DNA from: an uncultured Pseudomonadales bacterium
GTDB lineage: Bacteria > Patescibacteriota > Microgenomatia > UBA1400 > PJMF01
Length of the DNA: 64,000 nucleotides
Assembly: GCA_964404025.1 (NCBI GenBank)
Contig: CAYOIJ010000003.1
Location: forward strand, 10,727 to 74,726
Direction: 5' to 3'
The notes below the pieces were generated by a model that was given only the letters and a program-made list of their open reading frames with translations, was not told the origin of the DNA and searched no databases. Positions 6,060 through 52,512 of the stretch are shown piece by piece; the stretch's first letter is position 1, and every line of letters begins with the position of its first letter. Both the position numbers and the translations under genes were made by a program.

Positions 6060-6818
6060 GTGAACCCATTGCTGGCGCCACTTATCATTAATGAAGTTTT
6101 TCCTAATCCCAGTGCAGGAAGTGAGTGGGTAGAAATACTGCAACTTGGAGAAAGCCCCATTAACTCTACAGATTACAGTAACTTTACTATCAGTGATGAG
6201 GGGCGTGTTATTTATCAATTTAGTGGAGATGAAAATTGGCTAGGAAAACTTTTACTAATTGAATTATCAGGACTTAATAATGGTGGTGATAGTGTTGTTT
6301 TGAAAAATGCAGAGGGCTTAATCATTGACGAAATGACTTATAGTAGCAGCCAGAAAGACATGAGTTGGTTACGAACTGATACTGAAAACCCATCATTTAT
6401 TCTTGGTAAACCCAGTCCCCTGGCCTTAAATATAACTCCCAGTCCAAGCACTAAGCCTACTCTTACCCCAACTAGTGTTCCTTCCATTACTCCTATTAGT
6501 AATCCTAGTCCAATAATTAGTACCGATCAAAATCAAGAAAATGAGCAAAAACTAAAATTAGAGCAAATAAGTAAGCCGCCAGATAAACAACAAGAAACAC
6601 TTAACAATCAAGATATTTCAGAAAAATACTTTGCTAATTATCAAAACTTTAAAAACTTAAACATTAAGTGTCAAAACAGTCAACATTTTTCTAATTCCCG
6701 TCTAGTTTTTTTGGGGCAAAGAATTCTTAAAACAGCCACTGTCAATGCTATAATAGGAAGTTCTTTATTTATTGTCGCTGCAATTCTATTAAGCTATGAG
6801 CAAAAGCCAAATCACTAG
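6060..6818 (+). CDS. lamin-tail-domain (LTD) protein with a Pro/Thr-rich linker and a C-terminal transmembrane anchor
   Basis: LIINEVFPNPSAGSEWVEILQLG...GDSVVLKNAEGLIIDEMTY matches the LTD fold consensus. It is followed by a TPSPSTKPTLTPTSVPSITP linker and a hydrophobic C-terminal segment, IIGSSLFIVAAILL. It has a GTG start and no N-terminal signal peptide. Confidence 0.55.
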   Translation: MNPLLAPLIINEVFPNPSAGSEWVEILQLGESPINSTDYSNFTISDEGRVIYQFSGDENWLGKLLLIELSGLNNGGDSVVLKNAEGLIIDEMTYSSSQKDMSWLRTDTENPSFILGKPSPLALNITPSPSTKPTLTPTSVPSITPISNPSPIISTDQNQENEQKLKLEQISKPPDKQQETLNNQDISEKYFANYQNFKNLNIKCQNSQHFSNSRLVFLGQRILKTATVNAIIGSSLFIVAAILLSYEQKPNH

Positions 6819-32090: not shown

Positions 32091-35000
32091 CTAATCCTCA
32101 TCCTTTCCGTCTTCTTCAATTATTGCTTCATCTTCAGTGCTTTCTTCAAGATCATCTTCAGCATCATCTTCTTGTTCAATATTGTCTTCATTAGGTTCAT
32201 CTTCATCACTATTTGCCTCAGCATCTTCTTTGGCATCAGCTTCTTCAGACTCTAAATCTTCCAAGATTAACAATTCTTCTTGATCTTTTTCAGCGGCTGG
32301 TTCTTCACTGCTAAGCACCACTTCTTCAAGAGGATTAATATTCAGTGCTAAGGAATTTAACTCTTTGCACAAAACTTTAAATGATTCTGGAACTGTAGGT
32401 GCTGGAATTTCTTCGCCTTTAACAATAGCCTCAAAGGCTTTAGCTCTACCACGCACATCATCTGATTTAATAGTCAACATTTCTTGTAACACATGGGCAG
32501 CTCGGTGTGCTTGTAGTGCCCAAACCTCCATTTCACCCATTCTCTGACCACCCATTTGAGCTTTACCTCCCAGTGGTTGTTGAGTCACTAAAGAGTAAGG
32601 ACCAGTTGAACGAGCGTGAATTTTATCCTCAACCATATGGCTAAGTTTTAAAATATAGTTAATTCCAACTACTGATTTTTCATGATAAGCCTCACCAGTT
32701 AATCCGTTATAAAGTTGAGCCTTACCAGAAACAGGTAGGCCTGCTTTTTCTAGTTCTTGCCAAATTTTATCTTCATCAAATGCTTCAAAAGCTGGTGTGG
32801 CAACACTATAACCCAATTTATCTGCCGCCCAACCTAAATGAGCCTCCAATAATTGACCAAGATTCATACGGGCTAAAACTGATAATGGTGAAACAATAAT
32901 ATCCACTGGAGTGCCATCTTCTAAATGGGGCATATCCGCTTGTGGTACTATTTTGGAAATTACACCCTTATTGCCATGACGACCGGCTAATTTATCTCCT
33001 ACAACAATTTTTCTTAACTGAGCAACTTTGACTATTACTTCTTTGATGGTGCCAGGATCTAATTCATCCCCCAAATCACGATCTAAAATTTGCACATCAA
33101 TTACAGTTCCTTCTTCTCCGTGAGGCATACGTAAAGAAGTGTCTCGAATTTCTTTTGATTTTTCACCAAAAATAGCTCTCAATAAACGTTCCTCTGGAGA
33201 AAGCTCCGTTTCACCTTTGGGAGCTACTTTACCTACTAAAATATCTCCTGATTTAACATGGCTACCGACCTGAATGATGCCATCAATATTTAAATTGGCC
33301 AAAAAAGTTTCACTAACATTTGGAATATCATTAGTTAACTCTTCAGGACCTAAACGAGTATCCATAACCTTGGCTTTATGTTCGCTAATTTGGATAGAAC
33401 TAAGGGTATCTTCTTTGACTAAGCGGTCAGAAATAATAATAGCATCTTCATAACCTAAGCCATTATATGAGGTGTAAGCTATTAATAAATTGGTACCTAG
33501 GGCTAATTCCCCTTTTTCAGTAGCTGGTCCATCAATCAATACATCACCCTTTTTCAACTTATCTCCAACTTTAACTTCAGGAGTTTGATTGTAACAAGTG
33601 CTTTGGGCAGTGCGAACAAATTTGTTTAGAGTATAAACAAGAGTTCCTTGCTGATAACTAACATGTTCATCTTTATTTGTTTCAACCCAGTTCTTTGCTT
33701 TATCATAATATTTTGGATCAATCTTTAAGACTATTTCACTAGCGTCAACACTTTGAACTTCTCCAGGAAATTCTGCTAACACTGTCCAACCCATAGCAGA
33801 CGCTATTTCTTTTTCCATACCTGTACCGATAATAGGCGCCTGAGTTTTAAGCAAAGGAACAGCCTGGCATTGCATATGAGAACCCATTAAAGCTCGGTTG
33901 GCTTCATCATGAGCAATAAAAGGAATAAGTGAAGCGCTGCTACCCACCACTTGACGGGGCACCACATCAATATATTCAACTTTTTTCACTGAACCCTCAA
34001 TAAATTCATTAGCATGACGCATTGGGATCCAATCTTGAACAATATATCCCTTATCATCAATCTTTACTCCAGCGTGAGTAATGTAATAATCTTCTTCTTC
34101 ATCGGCACTTAAATAAACAATTTCATCAGTAATTTTCATTTTTCCTCGAAAGTCAGTTACCTTAAAGTAAGGGGCTTCCAAAAATCCATATTTATTAACT
34201 CTGGTATAAAGCGCTAAATAAGTAACCAAACCAATGTTTGGTCCTTCAGGAGAACGAATTGGACAGATTCTAGAATATTGAGAAGCATTAATATCACGCA
34301 TAGAAAATGATGCGCGATCACGAGTCACTCCACCTGTTCCCATTACCGATAAACGACGTAAATTATCAATTTCCGATAAAGGATTTGTTTGGTCTAAAAT
34401 AGTTGACAAACGATTACGACGGAAAAATTCAGCAATTGAAGCAATTAGGGGTCGAGCGTTAACTAAAGCCGAAGGAGTTAAAACCTCATCAGTTTTAGTC
34501 AAAGACATTTTTTCACGAATTGAGCGCTCTAAACGAATTAAGCCAATACGAAAAGCACTAATCAAGACTAATTCTCCAACCTGACGAACTCGACGATTAG
34601 ATAAATGATCTATGTCATCAACCTTACCTTCTCCATTTTGTAATTTAATTAAATATTTAATACTAGCCAAAACATCATCTTTAGCTAAAACAGTTAATTT
34701 ATCGTCCATTTTAATACCTAAGCGACGATTCATCTTGTAACGACCCACTTCACCTAAATCATAACGGCGTGGATCAAAAAACATATTTTTTAAAAATTCA
34801 CGAGCAGTTTCAAGTACTGCTGGCTCTCCTGGCCTCATTTTTTCGTAAACCTCAATCAAAGCTTCTGCTTGATTAGTTGTTGAATCTTTCCTGAGAGTGT
34901 TGTTGATTAAATCTAATTTATCTTGTTCTAATGTTTCTCCCAAGGCTTGAGCAATATCTTCATTACTTTCCCAACCCAAGGCTCGAAGAAGTACAGTGGC

Positions 35001-35567
35001 AGGCATCTTACGTCGACGATCAATTTTAATTGTCAAAACATGACGACGGCTAACGTTAATTTCCAACCAAGAACCTCGCATGGGTCGTAATTCTGCTTTA
35101 TAAAGAAGTTCTTTAGAACTTTGGTCTTCTTCTCCAGAGAAAAATACTCCTGGAGAGCGGACCAATTGTGTTACAATTCCCCGTTCGATACCATTGATAA
35201 TAAAGGTGCCAGTACTAGTCATGGCTGGAATATCACCCAAAAATACTTCCTGAGTTCTCTCTTCACCAGTCTTTTTATTCAAAAGAGTTGCCTCAACATA
35301 GAGAGGTTGATCATAAGAAACATTTTTATTTTTAGCTTCAGTGGGAGTATATTTAGCTTGACCAAAACGATATTGACCAAATTTTAAAGACCAGTTTTTA
35401 CCGGTAAAATCTTCAATGCCATTGTCAGAATTAATTTCTTTTAGTGATTCTTTAATACCATTATTTAAAAAATCTTGATAACTATTGATTTGTAGGGCAA
35501 TTAAATCTAATTTAGGTAAAATCTCATGATTTTGTCCCCAGTTCTGACGATTCATTGTTTGTGGCAT
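32091..35567 (-). CDS. rpoB: DNA-directed RNA polymerase subunit beta, with an acidic C-terminal tail
   Basis: It is 1158 aa of RpoB sequence throughout. The C-terminus is an extremely acidic ~90-aa tail (EEADAKEDAEANSDEDEPNEDNIEQEDDAEDD...). Confidence 0.95.
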   Translation of the reverse strand: MPQTMNRQNWGQNHEILPKLDLIALQINSYQDFLNNGIKESLKEINSDNGIEDFTGKNWSLKFGQYRFGQAKYTPTEAKNKNVSYDQPLYVEATLLNKKTGEERTQEVFLGDIPAMTSTGTFIINGIERGIVTQLVRSPGVFFSGEEDQSSKELLYKAELRPMRGSWLEINVSRRHVLTIKIDRRRKMPATVLLRALGWESNEDIAQALGETLEQDKLDLINNTLRKDSTTNQAEALIEVYEKMRPGEPAVLETAREFLKNMFFDPRRYDLGEVGRYKMNRRLGIKMDDKLTVLAKDDVLASIKYLIKLQNGEGKVDDIDHLSNRRVRQVGELVLISAFRIGLIRLERSIREKMSLTKTDEVLTPSALVNARPLIASIAEFFRRNRLSTILDQTNPLSEIDNLRRLSVMGTGGVTRDRASFSMRDINASQYSRICPIRSPEGPNIGLVTYLALYTRVNKYGFLEAPYFKVTDFRGKMKITDEIVYLSADEEEDYYITHAGVKIDDKGYIVQDWIPMRHANEFIEGSVKKVEYIDVVPRQVVGSSASLIPFIAHDEANRALMGSHMQCQAVPLLKTQAPIIGTGMEKEIASAMGWTVLAEFPGEVQSVDASEIVLKIDPKYYDKAKNWVETNKDEHVSYQQGTLVYTLNKFVRTAQSTCYNQTPEVKVGDKLKKGDVLIDGPATEKGELALGTNLLIAYTSYNGLGYEDAIIISDRLVKEDTLSSIQISEHKAKVMDTRLGPEELTNDIPNVSETFLANLNIDGIIQVGSHVKSGDILVGKVAPKGETELSPEERLLRAIFGEKSKEIRDTSLRMPHGEEGTVIDVQILDRDLGDELDPGTIKEVIVKVAQLRKIVVGDKLAGRHGNKGVISKIVPQADMPHLEDGTPVDIIVSPLSVLARMNLGQLLEAHLGWAADKLGYSVATPAFEAFDEDKIWQELEKAGLPVSGKAQLYNGLTGEAYHEKSVVGINYILKLSHMVEDKIHARSTGPYSLVTQQPLGGKAQMGGQRMGEMEVWALQAHRAAHVLQEMLTIKSDDVRGRAKAFEAIVKGEEIPAPTVPESFKVLCKELNSLALNINPLEEVVLSSEEPAAEKDQEELLILEDLESEEADAKEDAEANSDEDEPNEDNIEQEDDAEDDLEESTEDEAIIEEDGKDED

Positions 35568-37260: not shown

Positions 37261-38217
37261 CTAGTCTTTTATTAATTGTGCTGTTACTACCCCGCGACGT
37301 AAAGTAGTCCCCTCAGGAGTACAAGTCACTAACTTCAACTGACGCACATCGTAGCGTTGAGCTAAAATAAAGGTGTCATCTGGCTTAACCTCTGTCTTGC
37401 TTTGCACAATGTAAGTATATTTAACATTATCATGAGTTAAATATATTTTTTCTCCTCTTTCCAGCAACATAATTTTGCTAAAAATAGAAGTATAGCGACG
37501 AGGGTTATTTTCACTAGGATTGTAGAATTGACGCAAAACAGAATGGCCAAAAAGCACTGGTGAACCCAATTGTCCTGGTAGACCAGTACCAGGATAATGA
37601 ATTAAGCTCTGGTTAAGATCTGTGCCTCCAACCCTTACTTTCGCATTAGTAATATTTAAACTAGGAATATCTAAAGTATATTCAATAAATTCACTTTTAT
37701 TTAATTCTGGAACATCGAGCTCACTACTAAACCAATTACTTAAGTCAGTAAAATCAAGAGCCTGATCTAAAATGACTGGTCCATTTTCAGCACTCTTATT
37801 TGCCTGGCTTTCTTCAAGATCGACCTGAGCTTGAGCGGAAATAAGAGGCGTACTAAGTAATAATTGGGAGTGTGGAACCGGGGACAATAAGGCTAATTTT
37901 TCTTGTTTATTCCAGGGTAAATAATATTCTATCAGAGGCCAAAGCGCAGATAAGGCTAGAACTAAGCCAAAAGCTATTAATGCCAAAGGTAATAAAGTTG
38001 CCCCAAATCTAATTCTTCTTGGCAAACGTCGCCAAAAATTTAATTTAATTTGTTTGTCCAAAACCTGTTCTTCTTTACGACTAACAACGTCTTGTTTTAA
38101 AAAATAATTAACTTTTTTATTCAAATCTTGAATAGCCACCCCTTCCTTGAGAGCTTGACGGTAAAGCTTTAGAATTTGCTTTTTTTGCAGAGATGGTTGG
38201 GAATCTTTTTTGGCCAT
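37261..38217 (-). CDS. sortase-family transpeptidase (membrane-anchored)
   Basis: It has one TM helix. The catalytic His is in LFGHSVL, the catalytic Cys is in the TLxTC-like LKLVTCTPEG, and Arg follows (RRGVV). It lies 5 nt downstream of the 747-aa gene. Confidence 0.75.
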   Translation of the reverse strand: MAKKDSQPSLQKKQILKLYRQALKEGVAIQDLNKKVNYFLKQDVVSRKEEQVLDKQIKLNFWRRLPRRIRFGATLLPLALIAFGLVLALSALWPLIEYYLPWNKQEKLALLSPVPHSQLLLSTPLISAQAQVDLEESQANKSAENGPVILDQALDFTDLSNWFSSELDVPELNKSEFIEYTLDIPSLNITNAKVRVGGTDLNQSLIHYPGTGLPGQLGSPVLFGHSVLRQFYNPSENNPRRYTSIFSKIMLLERGEKIYLTHDNVKYTYIVQSKTEVKPDDTFILAQRYDVRQLKLVTCTPEGTTLRRGVVTAQLIKD

Positions 38218-38222
38218 AGGAA

Positions 38223-40466
38223 TTAATTAATAACAAAATTAAAACGAGCAGTGTTTTTTGGTAACTTTTGCACTAGCTTGGACAAAAATTCTGGTTGATA
38301 TACTATTTCTGCTTTGCTTATTAATTCTTGGTCTTCTAGATTATTTTCTGCTTCTTCAATGCTCTTGCCAACTAATAAGTCTGTCAACGACTCTTCATCA
38401 ATATTTGCTCTAGATTTAGCTGATAACTCTGTACTTAAAATTAAACGATTACTGTCATCTTCAGTCGGAACAGCTCGATCGCTTAGTAGTGATGGCTCTT
38501 CATCAACAAATTCATAATTTTCTGGCAGATCCATAAGCAAAACTGCTCGCGCCAACTGTTTCAAGTCACTAGATAAATATTTGACGGCCTCAACTTCTAA
38601 ATTCATTTTTAAAGAAAGAGTTTCCACCTCGTCTCCCTCTTCGTGATCATATTCAAAAAAAGTAATACGACTCTTATCACTTGCTACAAAATAAACACCA
38701 TCTCTAGACTCTTCAGCAAACTCATCTTTAGCAATTTCGTTTAAACTTGTTCTTAATTGACTCAGTAAATTTTCTAAATCCTCTTTGGAAACCACTCTCA
38801 CCTCTCTACTAGAACCACCAGAAAAATTTTCAAGAGCAGTAGCTGAATAGGTATCTTCACTAAAATCTGCAACTTTTAATTTACTATCTTTTTCAATATT
38901 GGCGTCTGCTCCTATGTCTTTAGCAACCACCATCGCTTCTTTACTCCCATAATTCATTCCAGCACCACCCTCTTCTTCTTCAGCAGCAGCTACTATTACT
39001 TCTTCCTCAAATTCAAACAAAACACCCTCGTGCTCCAAAGTTGTACTAGCAGCAAAAGTTTTTTCACTAGAAGTCTTATTAAATAATTTAATCTTTCCCT
39101 TAGCTTTTTCTCCTACTAAACTAATACCAGTTGTACTTAAGCTGTCTTCACCGCTAATTTCTTTTTTTACTAATGACGCTTTGAGTAAATTTTTATTATA
39201 ATCAGATTCTGCTAGTTGAGGATCAAGAATGATATCGAGATTTTTTTGCAGTATTTGTTCGTCCGCTTTAATTCTGACTGTTATATTCGATAAGAAAAAA
39301 CTAAAAATAAGTAGAATAATCGTTAGAGCTAATAGACCGCTGCTAACTCCAATTATTAATGATTTACGATTTTTTCTTAAAAAACGAGCTAAAGGAGTCA
39401 TTTTTTTTATTTTTTCTGGGTTTTTTGTTAATACGGGTTTAACAACTTGATGATTTACTTGATCGGGATTAAATTCTTTCAATTCTTCAGATTTAAAATC
39501 AGTGAATTGAGCTCTATTATTCTCTTCATCCGCCTTGACTTTATCAGAAGCGAAATCAATACCAAAACTACTAATTTTTTGCTCTTCACTCTTTACCTCA
39601 ACTTCATTTGCTAAATTATTTTCCAGATCAGTACCTTTTTCAACACCATGAACTATGCTTAAATCCTGATCAAGTTTAGATCTGAAGTCAGTTGATAGCA
39701 TATGACTGGCTGCTAAACTTAGAGACTTAATTAAAAAGTCTATTTCTAAAACTACAAATTGTGGTGCTTGTAAAAAACCACTGACTTTTGTCCAATCAAA
39801 GGCTTGCAGTTGTGACTGCTCCTTTTTTAAAGATTTTTGACTAAGATTTAATGAGGTCAGAAAAAGTTTGTTGGGAAAATATTTGCCCTGTTCTCCTAGC
39901 TCTTGGCTAACTCTTGCTAAACCCTCTTGTAAATCGTCAGTCAATTTTGCTGATCTACCAACTCGAAGATTAAGTAATAATTGACCATGTTTAATCAAAA
40001 TTAAATCAAAATCTCGCTCACGCAAATAGATAGTGAGGGAAGAGTCACGAGGATCATTAATAATCCGAGATCTATGAATTCCCTCACTTACACTCATTTG
40101 TCCCAAAGCAGATAGGCTTAAACTTTCTGATAATTCTTGAACTATGACTTTTTTACTATCTAATAATTCACCATCTTTCAACCAAGACTCATCAAAAATA
40201 AAAACACAATCTGCTACTTCGTCTGCTAATAATCCCAAGTCTTGTAGTGACTGGTCGAGTTGAATTAACAAATCTTGACGATCAAAATAAGTTTTAATTG
40301 CAGAATACTCTTTAATTTCTTGCTTCTTATTAACTAAAGCGCTCTGCAACTCTTGATCACTTAAAATGATAGAAATAAATAATTCCTCATGATTAAGGTT
40401 CTCAGTTAGATCATGATGCTTCTTTTCTTTTTTTCTCTGAGTAAATTTTTTCAATAAATTGGGCAT
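38223..40466 (-). CDS. uncharacterised 747-aa bitopic membrane protein. It has a ~370-aa cytoplasmic N-domain, one TM helix, and a ~350-aa acidic extracytoplasmic C-domain. It is the first gene of the sortase operon.
   Basis: The single hydrophobic segment is LIIGVSSGLLALTIILLIFSFFL at ~aa 372-394, after a basic stretch KNRKS. The N-domain has a weak actin-fold/PilM-FtsA-like feel (LILIKHGQLLLNLRVGRSAKLTDDLQEGLARV), but no recognisable motif could be confirmed by eye. Confidence 0.5.
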   Translation of the reverse strand: MPNLLKKFTQRKKEKKHHDLTENLNHEELFISIILSDQELQSALVNKKQEIKEYSAIKTYFDRQDLLIQLDQSLQDLGLLADEVADCVFIFDESWLKDGELLDSKKVIVQELSESLSLSALGQMSVSEGIHRSRIINDPRDSSLTIYLRERDFDLILIKHGQLLLNLRVGRSAKLTDDLQEGLARVSQELGEQGKYFPNKLFLTSLNLSQKSLKKEQSQLQAFDWTKVSGFLQAPQFVVLEIDFLIKSLSLAASHMLSTDFRSKLDQDLSIVHGVEKGTDLENNLANEVEVKSEEQKISSFGIDFASDKVKADEENNRAQFTDFKSEELKEFNPDQVNHQVVKPVLTKNPEKIKKMTPLARFLRKNRKSLIIGVSSGLLALTIILLIFSFFLSNITVRIKADEQILQKNLDIILDPQLAESDYNKNLLKASLVKKEISGEDSLSTTGISLVGEKAKGKIKLFNKTSSEKTFAASTTLEHEGVLFEFEEEVIVAAAEEEEGGAGMNYGSKEAMVVAKDIGADANIEKDSKLKVADFSEDTYSATALENFSGGSSREVRVVSKEDLENLLSQLRTSLNEIAKDEFAEESRDGVYFVASDKSRITFFEYDHEEGDEVETLSLKMNLEVEAVKYLSSDLKQLARAVLLMDLPENYEFVDEEPSLLSDRAVPTEDDSNRLILSTELSAKSRANIDEESLTDLLVGKSIEEAENNLEDQELISKAEIVYQPEFLSKLVQKLPKNTARFNFVIN

Positions 40467-45315: not shown

Positions 45316-45717
45316 GGGGATGTATTGTATTGACGTCAGTCAACTTTAATCATAGCAGATCATCTTTGGTGAAAAGATGTTAAAAAACACTAAAAAATAA
45401 CTGTCAAAAACAGTTTTAAAACAGCAGTTAATAAAGTCGCCAGTCTTTTTGACTTCGGCTTCGTAGCTGCTCCTGCTTTTGCTTAATTGTAAAAGTAGGC
45501 ATCTAGTGTTGAACTCTTATCGACGGTTCACATTAGGTGAAAACCTAGTCGATTAACAGAAATAAAGAATCAGGTCGCTTTGTTTCTAAGAATTAGGCCT
45601 GGATGAAGCAAAAAAAGTTTGTCTATTCACTTCTTGCTTCAAATCAAAAATAAACTAAATCTGTAGACATCGTTAAAGTCAGATTAGCGGACGCGGGAGC
45701 AAAACCCGCCATCTCCA
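45316..45717 (+). ncRNA. ssrA: transfer-messenger RNA (tmRNA, SsrA)
   Basis: The 5' GGGGATG pairs with the 3' CATCTCC to form a 7-bp acceptor stem with G3:U70. The 3' tRNA-like end GGAC-GCGGG-AGCAAAA-CCCGC-CATCTCC-A matches the E. coli GGAC-GGGGG-UUCAAAU-CCCCC-CGCCUCC-A architecture. The 5' D-analog is ATTGTATTGACG. An internal tag reading frame follows AGTC, from the GCC resume codon at 45439 to the TAA at 45484-45486, encoding ASLFDFGFVAAPAFA. The CCA is not encoded; the sequence reads A-CAA. Confidence 0.7.
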
Positions 45718-45745
45718 CAAAAATAAATATTTATCTGAAAATTAG

Positions 45746-46231
45746 TTAGTTTTTGAATTTAAGGCTTAGACCTAAGCCAAGCGCTAATATCCCTAAAGCA
45801 AAAATTATAATTGTATTCTCTAGAGCACCTGATTCTGGCAGAGTTGTTTTCGCAGAGGGGGTACTCATGCTAGCCACTTCTGACACATTCACGACTAAAT
45901 CTAGTGATTCGCCAGCAGAACTAACTACCAAATTATTGTTCCCGTAAGCAACATCGCTAAAATTAACCCCCCAACTACCCAAAGAATCAGCGGCAGTATT
46001 ATTGTTCAAATCCCCAAGCGCTACTCGCACCTCAGCTGAAGGAGAAGCAGTTCCTCTGACGGTAAAGCTTGTTAGGGTAGTATCATAAGTTTTCACTGTA
46101 GATCCCAAACCCACAATTGAATCGTTACCTCCTATGGCATCAATCGTAAGAGCGCTGGCAAACACTGGTTTAATCAAAACAAGAGATAAAAACAAAAAAA
46201 ATAATAGGGCAATTTTTGTGATTTTTTTCAT
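45746..46231 (-). CDS. small secreted surface protein with a C-terminal LPESG sortase sorting signal (paralog A)
   Basis: Signal peptide MKKITKIALLFFLFLSLVLIKPVFA. The C-terminus is TTLPESG-ALENTIIIFALGILALGLGLSL-KFKN: motif, hydrophobic segment, then a basic tail. Confidence 0.7.
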   Translation of the reverse strand: MKKITKIALLFFLFLSLVLIKPVFASALTIDAIGGNDSIVGLGSTVKTYDTTLTSFTVRGTASPSAEVRVALGDLNNNTAADSLGSWGVNFSDVAYGNNNLVVSSAGESLDLVVNVSEVASMSTPSAKTTLPESGALENTIIIFALGILALGLGLSLKFKN

Positions 46232-50922: not shown

Positions 50923-51987
50923 CTAATAGGTGGGTAGAAAAATTTTGACATTATCTGGCCTAATAATCACTTCTTCAAAACCACGCTCTACAATAATTCG
51001 TGCTGCTTTACGCACCGCACCCTTAAGAGTGCGCTGCAGCGTTCTTACTCCAGCATCAAAACCCAAAGGACGCACTAAGGTTGGCCAAATTGCTTCATCA
51101 ATTTTGAATTGACTTTCTTTCAAACCAGCCTCTTTGATAATGCTTGGCAAGATATACTTTTTAGCAATTACTATCTTTTCTTCATCGCTATAAGATGGCA
51201 TATCAATCCGTTCCATACGATCAATTACTGCGGTTGCAATGCGTCGAGTGTTATTACAAGTAGCAATGAAAATTGCTTGGCTCAAATTAACTGGGTAATT
51301 AATGTAATTATCTACAAAAGCATGATTTTGAGCTGGATCTAACAGCTCTACTAAAACCCCCATAATATCATTATTGGCTTCATCAGCGGCTCGATCAATT
51401 TCGTCAAGCAAAATCACAGGATTCATTGTTTTAGCTTCACACAAACCCTGTATCACTGCTCCGGGTTGAGCTTCTAAAATCAGTCGCGATTCACCACGCA
51501 GTTCTTTAGCAGATACCATGCCGCCAATGGGAATGCGCACTAATTGACGCCCTAGCGCTTCTGCCAAAGAATAGGCAAAAGTAGTTTTTCCAGTGCCCAC
51601 TAGACCGACTAATAGTAAAATCGGTGCAGAGAATTCTTGGCTAGTAAAGTTTTGTTTTTGTAAATTAAGAATAGCTAAATATTCTAAAAAACGATCCTTA
51701 ACCTCTTTTAAACCATAATGATGTTTATCAAAAACTATTTTAGCCGCCTGAATATCTAGAGTGTCTTCACTTTTTTGAGCAAAAGGGATCTTAATTACCC
51801 AATCTAAATAACGAGAAACTTTGTCGTATTTTTCATCATAATTTCCCAATTTGACACTGCGCTCTAGAGAGCTTAATTCTTTTTTTAATTTTGATAAAAG
51901 CTCTTCTGGCAATTGAATTTGTTCAATTTTTGCTTTAAGCTCGTCAAGTTCTTGATTTAAAATTTCTTCAGAATTAATTTGAGACAT
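50923..51987 (-). CDS. Lon-like AAA+ ATPase. It has a Lon ATPase module but no LON N-domain and no S16 protease domain.
   Basis: It aligns by eye to the Lon region ...YLDWVIKIPF...DKHHYGLKEVKDRFLEYLA...GLVGTGKTTFAYSLAEALGRQLVRIPIGG...ILLDEIDR. The protein ends at 354 aa. Confidence 0.65.
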   Translation of the reverse strand: MSQINSEEILNQELDELKAKIEQIQLPEELLSKLKKELSSLERSVKLGNYDEKYDKVSRYLDWVIKIPFAQKSEDTLDIQAAKIVFDKHHYGLKEVKDRFLEYLAILNLQKQNFTSQEFSAPILLLVGLVGTGKTTFAYSLAEALGRQLVRIPIGGMVSAKELRGESRLILEAQPGAVIQGLCEAKTMNPVILLDEIDRAADEANNDIMGVLVELLDPAQNHAFVDNYINYPVNLSQAIFIATCNNTRRIATAVIDRMERIDMPSYSDEEKIVIAKKYILPSIIKEAGLKESQFKIDEAIWPTLVRPLGFDAGVRTLQRTLKGAVRKAARIIVERGFEEVIIRPDNVKIFLPTY

Positions 51988-51993
51988 AAAAAA

Positions 51994-52512
51994 CTAAAAT
52001 TGCTTTGCTTGAAGTGCGAAGCCCAAACCAATACTAAGCATAGCTAAAGCCAAGAATATAATAGTCGTAGTAGTTGAACCAGCTTGTGGCAAAGTTCCAT
52101 CCGAAGCACTGGCTATTGCTTCTGTTGATGCTGTTGACCCTGTTGCTTCAGTACTATCACCAATAGTTAAAACAAAATCTAGTGTTTCTGCTCCAGATTC
52201 TAAATTAAACTGATGCCTGCCCTCAGTTAATGATGACACCAAATTAGTCCAACCCCCCTCTGCATCAGCTGTCGCAGTTTGTGTTGAATCATCAATTAAA
52301 ATTGATACGGTGGCCGAAGGAGAAGCTAAACCTGTTAATTCAAATGTGCCACCAGAATAAGTGTAGTTCTTTAAACTGCCTCCTAGATCTAGTCCCGAGA
52401 CATCTATGGGTCCTAAGCCCGTAATCTTTAAAGAAGCAGCCGAAACTTTTTTGACAAAAAGCAAGGGAAAGAGAAGTAATAAAAGTACAGTGCTAATAAA
52501 AAATTTTTTCAT
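51994..52512 (-). CDS. small secreted surface protein with a C-terminal LPQAG sortase sorting signal (paralog B)
   Basis: Signal peptide MKKFFISTVLLLLLFPLLFVKKVSA. The C-terminus is GTLPQAG-STTTTIIFLALAMLSIGLGFAL-QAKQF. It shares blocks with paralog A (GLASPSATV / GTASPSAEV; ETLDFVL / ESLDLVV). Confidence 0.7.
   Translation of the reverse strand: MKKFFISTVLLLLLFPLLFVKKVSAASLKITGLGPIDVSGLDLGGSLKNYTYSGGTFELTGLASPSATVSILIDDSTQTATADAEGGWTNLVSSLTEGRHQFNLESGAETLDFVLTIGDSTEATGSTASTEAIASASDGTLPQAGSTTTTIIFLALAMLSIGLGFALQAKQF

Follow-up and report, generated by a model that had tools for sequence, protein, structure and literature searches.

The stretch of DNA analysed here, a 64,000-nucleotide window of a 122,925-bp metagenomic contig (ENA ERZ4240871 NODE_90), has a G+C content of ~36% and carries mostly housekeeping genes. 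Among these, on the minus strand, lie two small open reading frames, ORF A (45746-46231, 161 aa) and ORF B (51994-52512, 172 aa), which had been predicted to encode paralogous secreted proteins with C-terminal sorting signals. BLASTP alignment of the two products (32% identity over 152 aa, E 4e-21) bears out their paralogy, and a signal peptide, a beta-sandwich, a sorting motif, a hydrophobic helix and a K-containing tail are all present in both, as had been proposed. On the same strand, the window also contains a sortase gene, which had gone unnoticed in the original prediction.

Domain organisation of ORF A and ORF B

Both products are single-domain proteins of 16-18 kDa. Each starts with MKK, followed by a hydrophobic core of 15-18 aa and an AxA-like site, the features of a Sec signal peptide that is predicted from sequence to span approximately aa 1-26 in A (site VFA↓S) and aa 1-25 in B (site VSA↓A). 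AF2 models of the two proteins (mean pLDDT 75 for A and 65 for B) place a helix at residues 2-23 of A and 2-18 of B, and then an Ig-like beta-sandwich, which extends over ~aa 29-116 in A, with nine strands between residues 29 and 116, and over ~aa 26-117 in B. The sandwich is followed by a Ser/Thr linker in A (aa 117-130) and by a Ser/Thr/Ala linker in B (aa 118-140), in a region modelled as disordered, with pLDDT values below 50 at residues 121-133 of A and 119-146 of B.

These linkers lead to the motif LPESG in A (aa 131-135; 45827-45841, minus strand), with a putative cleavage site between Ser134 and Gly135, and to LPQAG in B (aa 141-145; 52078-52092, minus strand). The segments past the motif comprise 26-27 residues, made up of a short polar spacer, a ~20-residue Gly-Leu-Gly helix and a K-containing tail. 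In A, the hydrophobic helix covers aa 136-157 (residues 136-160 in the AF2 model) and precedes the tail KFKN, and in B the helix after LPQAG runs into the tail QAKQF. A hydrophobic core of ~20 aa is therefore present after both motifs, as originally predicted, and a positively charged tail follows it. The tails are short and weakly basic, having just one or two Lys and lacking a cluster of Arg residues, a property that counts against the reading of these proteins as sortase substrates.

Conservation of the C-terminal motif

We examined the motif in 14 database homologues of A, 23 homologues of B and 14 more distant small proteins (160-186 aa) of the same architecture, the last group found by searching 1.84 billion representative proteins with a profile. 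The homologues carry the names Candidatus Pacebacteria/Paceibacterota or Woesebacteria, with one distant member from Candidatus Shapirobacteria, and these names place the organism in the Microgenomates group of the CPR/Patescibacteria. The pentapeptide could be scored in 52 of the 54 small homologues, the other two being a nonsense-truncated copy and an LPEELLQSG variant. Pro and Gly were found in all 52 and Leu in 51, while position 3 was filled by nine different residues and position 4 by Ala (35), Ser (14) or Thr (3). Orthologues of A have LPE[SA]G, except for one with LPSAG, and the L, P, A and G of the B motif are invariant across its 23 orthologues. The tripartite signal is kept in orthologues and distant homologues alike, as is the helix with GLG that LPXTG signals typically have, whereas the linker upstream of the motif is hypervariable in both sequence and length. 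The presence of an invariant, fixed-register motif beside a hypervariable linker argues that the motif is under selection and is not a chance match.

Among the window ORFs that are 90 aa or longer (75 in all), three matches to the pattern LP.[AST]G were found where composition alone would predict 0.93, and the only match besides the C-terminal sites of A and B is internal, in a 1158-aa ORF at 32091-35567. A loose scan for C-terminal sorting signals, which covered ~84 kb of the contig (the window and 10-kb flanks), ~1.3 Mb around the sortase genes of 80 related genomes and the other loci of the family, found no real protein besides members of the A/B family. There is thus no independent substrate set by which to judge the generality of Ala or Ser at position 4.

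Since LPXTG by definition allows any residue at position 3, only position 4, with Ser or Ala in place of Thr, is non-canonical in A and B. Of the two positions originally described as unusual, the fourth stands and the third does not, and even there "non-canonical" is an overstatement, given that signals of the LPxAG and LPxSG types have been documented in both staphylococci and streptococci. The SrtA of S. aureus has a strong preference for Thr at position 4, and the rarity of Thr in the family counts against the sortase-substrate reading. The same holds for the curated LPXTG models, in which both window proteins fall below the cut-offs: Gram_pos_anchor gives them 18.8 and 15.2 bits (cut-off 20), and TIGR01167 gives 14.0 (cut-off 15.9). 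Although sub-threshold, these matches are specific to LPXTG-anchor models, and in this they speak for the sortase-substrate reading. Across the family, EF0750_LPXTG is matched by 13 of 28 members and Gram_pos_anchor, at E <= 0.01, by only 2 of 28. Most members are annotated as hypothetical, and one orthologue (P0018) has been named "LPXTG cell wall anchor domain-containing protein" by NCBI.

A single Ig-like module per protein

The profile of the A/B family matches giant tandem-repeat proteins with E values of 4e-97 to 1e-20 and up to 51 stretches per protein, and the three giant matches that we checked are Big_13/Big_6 repeat proteins. In addition, 23 of 28 family members match the NCBIfam model Ca_tandemer (best E 8.5e-07). 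Taken alone, the window proteins stay below curated cut-offs, Big_13 (PF19077) reaching 17.2 against a cut-off of 27. The sequence blocks that had been reported as common to the two proteins (G-T/L-ASPSA, GxW and ExLDxV) prove to be real and are those characteristic of Big_13-type Ig-like domains. As modelled, A and B are single-copy, divergent Big_13/Ca-tandemer Ig-like modules. Of the folds originally put forward for a structural check (CnaB, Ig and pilin), the Ig-like one was therefore recovered, and CnaA/CnaB and pilin folds were not returned by structure searches.

The giant Big_13 (PF19077)/Ca_tandemer (NF033510) adhesins share with A and B the beta-sandwich and the blocks G-T-A-x-P-x-A-x-V ... 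T-A-D-x-x-G-x-W, but they consist of tens of repeats, whereas A and B have one domain and a predicted wall anchoring by sorting signal. The C-termini of the giant Big_13 proteins bear unrelated signals (LAFTG-like motifs and Cys-rich/RRRR tails), which suggests that these proteins come from other taxa and are uninformative for the signals of A and B.

Elsewhere in the window, a 252-aa ORF (6060-6818, plus strand) matches the Lamin Tail Domain with 28.1 bits, below the cut-off of 34.3, and may also be a surface or secreted Ig-like protein.

A sortase in the same window

The sortase gene (37261-38217, minus strand) encodes a protein of 318 aa that matches PF04203 with 67.5 bits (cut-off 26.6). 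A cytoplasmic N-terminal segment of ~70 aa (LLKLYRQAL...), conserved among homologues, is followed by a single TM helix (~aa 72-95), a linker and the catalytic domain (aa 182-315). The triad residues His225, Cys299 and Arg308 are invariant in 21 aligned homologues, and so is the active-site sequence QLKLVTC, which replaces TLxTC (KLVTCTPEG at 37309-37335). The pattern T[LIVM].TC matched no real gene in the window, and the sortase, with its KLVTC, came from Pfam matches on the contig.

All class-model scores of this protein are below the respective cut-offs (36.3 against 160 for class C, 33.2 against 160 for class E, 31.1 against 165 for class D, 32.4 against 140 for SrtD and 15.8 against 166 for class F), so that it fits none of classes A-F, and even the generic model TIGR01076 stops short at 37.9 (cut-off 39.35). 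The nearest solved sequences are 2kw8_A and 4d70_A (E 1e-8 to 3e-8). Relatives of the sortase are present in 149 GTDB species genomes.

In 79 of 81 Pacebacteria-like loci, the gene directly upstream of the sortase encodes a 747-aa single-pass membrane protein (38223-40466, minus strand, in the window), with ~365 aa in the cytoplasm, one TM helix and ~355 aa outside. Pfam, NCBIfam and PDB sequence searches gave no match to this protein, which may be a partner of the sortase. The pair is flanked by alaS ... ruvX-yceG(mltG) in the same 79/81 proportion of loci, a housekeeping-type arrangement. Neither a substrate within 10 kb of the sortase nor a substrate-sortase operon was found in 80 related genomes, and the distances on this contig (7.5 kb to A and 13.8 kb to B) are therefore incidental. 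This lack of operon linkage counts against the sortase-substrate reading. In at least five further lineages, orthologues of the sortase and of A/B share longest-contig sizes (41890, 68206, 78495, 25485 and 19036 bp), an identity which suggests that the same contigs carry both.

Like housekeeping sortases of class A/D/E, the window enzyme combines a sortase domain, a His-Cys-Arg triad and an N-terminal membrane anchor, and occupies a genomic position unlinked to substrates. It departs from them in QLKLVTC, in its cytoplasmic N-terminal domain, in its 747-aa neighbour and in model scores of 16-36 bits, where the class cut-offs are 140-166. These first three features, with the 747-aa protein as an obligate membrane partner, and the place in the alaS-ruvX-mltG cluster allow the tentative suggestion that the sortase forms a distinct, so far undescribed class, with a natural specificity for LPx(A/S)G over LPxTG and with A/B-like single-Ig proteins as its principal substrates in these minimal genomes. 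We view this suggestion as possible but somewhat doubtful.

Stable and variable genomic slots

The order pfkB-[B]-Lon-like AAA-UDG-RNase J-ftsK-[A] is conserved. The slot next to pfkB is occupied in all relatives examined. The ftsK slot holds an intact gene in the window and in the related loci L005 and L091 and is empty in L087 and L088; in L085, L086 and L092, an in-frame TAA stands directly before an intact ETLPEAG-helix-KSRD signal (L085, 16279-16761). With a stop codon at this point, the anchor is dispensable for that copy, an observation that counts against the sortase-substrate reading. The truncated product of the A orthologue is listed on 31 contigs and is either a secreted form that lacks the anchor or a pseudogene of recent origin. 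The pfkB-slot protein of L087 is nearer to A (57%) than to B (39%), and a metagenome profile scan gave nine loci that are consistent with this picture of the slots; an activated-sludge metagenome is the source of one related locus. A is therefore a lineage-variable duplicate, whereas B sits in a stable slot. The two copies that had been described as dispersed are in fact one gene in a conserved slot (pfkB-B-Lon-like AAA) and another in a slot after ftsK that varies between lineages.

Several further elements accompany these genes. A PMT_2 (GT-C family) glycosyltransferase is encoded in or beside the ftsK slot of relatives (16903-18285 in L085 and 16289-17671 in L088), a neighbour that may hint at O-glycosylation of Ser/Thr-rich surface stalks. 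Six nucleotides downstream of B, a gene at 50923-51987 (minus strand) encodes an AAA+ protein of 354 aa that has a Lon lid domain but in which a protease domain was not detected; this protein follows the pfkB-slot gene in every relative examined. What looks like an empty gap of 500 nt downstream of A holds a tmRNA gene (45316-45720, plus strand; Rfam RF00023, 102 bits, E 1e-38) that is convergent with A and was not reported by ARAGORN. Promoter and terminator scans gave background levels.

Probable wall anchoring by sortase and its alternatives

The full tripartite signal in both proteins, the selection that appears to act on the motif and the presence of a sortase in the window argue that A and B are sortase substrates and ordinary wall-anchored surface proteins. 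To this reading, which is well supported though short of proof, we assign a probability of about 0.7. The original prediction of likely sortase substrates is in this respect upheld, on the conserved signal, the intact catalytic triad of the sortase and the LPXTG name that NCBI gives to one orthologue.

Under such a scheme, A and B would be exported via Sec to the surface, each with its one Ig-like domain raised on a Ser/Thr-rich stalk that is short and probably extended. The precursor would be held in the membrane by the C-terminal helix and the K-containing tail until the housekeeping sortase cleaves LPx(S/A)↓G after position 4, with formation of a thioacyl intermediate on Cys299. The protein would then be transferred to a peptidoglycan precursor, the presumed wall acceptor, to yield an Ig module of 108-119 aa that is displayed as a monomer on the cell wall.

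A and B might instead be tail-anchored by the C-terminal helix and never cleaved, in which case LPx(A/S)G would be structural, for example a Pro-Gly helix cap. Anchoring by TM helices without a sortase has been proposed for the Pam chaperones and for the terminator PamR (preprint 10.64898/2026.03.03.709456), and the weakly charged tails, the absence of Thr at position 4 of A and B and LPXTG model scores under the cut-offs would all suit it. We nevertheless hold it to be rather unlikely. The L, P and G residues are invariant at 26-27 residues from the C-terminus despite ~30% identity elsewhere, which better matches a recognition motif; only A, S and T, all of them small, occur at position 4, as is the case for known substrates of sortases; and a sortase that is conserved and has kept its triad must have substrates, for which the A/B family provides the only candidates seen. 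Several protein-sorting systems share the tripartite signal layout, and the examined part of the genome amounts to ~84 kb, so that an exosortase, archaeosortase or rhombosortase-type enzyme encoded elsewhere could be imagined to handle the signal. LPx[AST]G is, however, a sortase signature, unlike PEP, PGF, GlyGly or VPxxxP, the specific model matches are to LPXTG anchors, and none of these three types of enzyme was seen in the window or its flanks; processing by any of them is highly improbable.

Equally remote is the idea that A and B are pilin subunits polymerised by the sortase into a covalent pilus, which had been raised in the form of pilin-like or polymerised subunits. It draws on the presence of sorting signals on small Ig-like modules, on the possibility that two paralogues act as shaft and base, and on the LPxAG that FctB-type basal pilins also carry. 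What we found is a generic Ig-like sandwich, with neither a YPKN-type pilin motif nor any Cys in A or B, and without a CnaA/CnaB-type fold bearing intramolecular isopeptide bonds; structure searches gave no pilin. The only well-conserved Lys, K47, is near-invariant in close families but is replaced by T, S, H or Q in distant homologues. The sortase scores far below the class C cut-off and occupies a housekeeping context in nearly all of the loci, and the window contains no class C sortase with a pilin gene cluster and no pilus operon. A, B and the sortase instead stand in separate housekeeping contexts. A and B do not share an operon, and lineages differ in whether copy A is missing, truncated or intact. 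With no universally conserved Lys, no class C sortase and no pilus operon, polymerisation is unsupported, and so is this part of the original prediction.

Relation to known systems and implications for CPR surfaces

Having weighed these alternatives, we return to A and B as probable wall-anchored sortase substrates. Their sorting signals have a mildly unusual motif of a type already known from Firmicutes. SasF of S. aureus (LPKAG) is wall-associated (PMC3398289), FctB of S. pyogenes (LPLAG) is anchored by SrtA and FctX, with LPSSG, is sortase-handled (PMC7900414), and surface shaving of S. haemolyticus yielded proteins with LPXAG and LPXSG signals (PMC7137321). With these SasF/FctB/FctX-type signals, A and B share the signal peptide, LPx(A/S)G, the Gly-Leu-Gly helix and the short basic tail. 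Ala or Ser at position 4 is a rare exception among the LPxTG substrates of Firmicutes, whereas it is found in 49 of 52 members of the A/B family; moreover, the host here is a CPR bacterium (Pacebacteria-like), and its sortase lies outside classes A-F.

Among the surface structures of CPR bacteria, the recently described Pam pili consist of pilins that have two domains and a mass of 38-55 kDa; they are assembled through donor-strand exchange with the aid of PapD-like chaperones and encoded in a pam operon, and Pam homologues have been reported in Microgenomatia (preprint 10.64898/2026.03.03.709456). Pam pilins resemble A and B as CPR-specific secreted Ig-like surface proteins, but no sortase motif has been described for them, whereas A and B are single-domain proteins in housekeeping contexts with LPx(A/S)G. 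On a comparison by description only, we set A and B (161 and 172 aa) aside as Pam pilus components on the grounds of this single-domain architecture.

The sortase itself is the more interesting point than A and B. Sortase is near-ubiquitous in Microgenomates (PMC6744442), and we found no description of Microgenomates sortase substrates or specificity in the searchable literature. For sortase-mediated ligation, LPXSG-specific sortase variants reportedly had to be engineered (PMC9782347, PMC8248031). Should the sortase described here really favour Ala or Ser at the scissile position, nature would have supplied an orthogonal enzyme for such ligation.

Most CPR/Patescibacteria are episymbionts that have not been cultured, and contact with the host is mediated by their surface molecules. 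The role of A and B is most likely that of a surface coat or of adhesion in an episymbiotic CPR cell. The A/B family offers concrete candidate substrates for the Microgenomates sortase, with the motif LPx[A>S>>T]G. This motif is mostly missed by standard LPXTG models, and the surface proteomes of CPR bacteria are therefore probably under-annotated.
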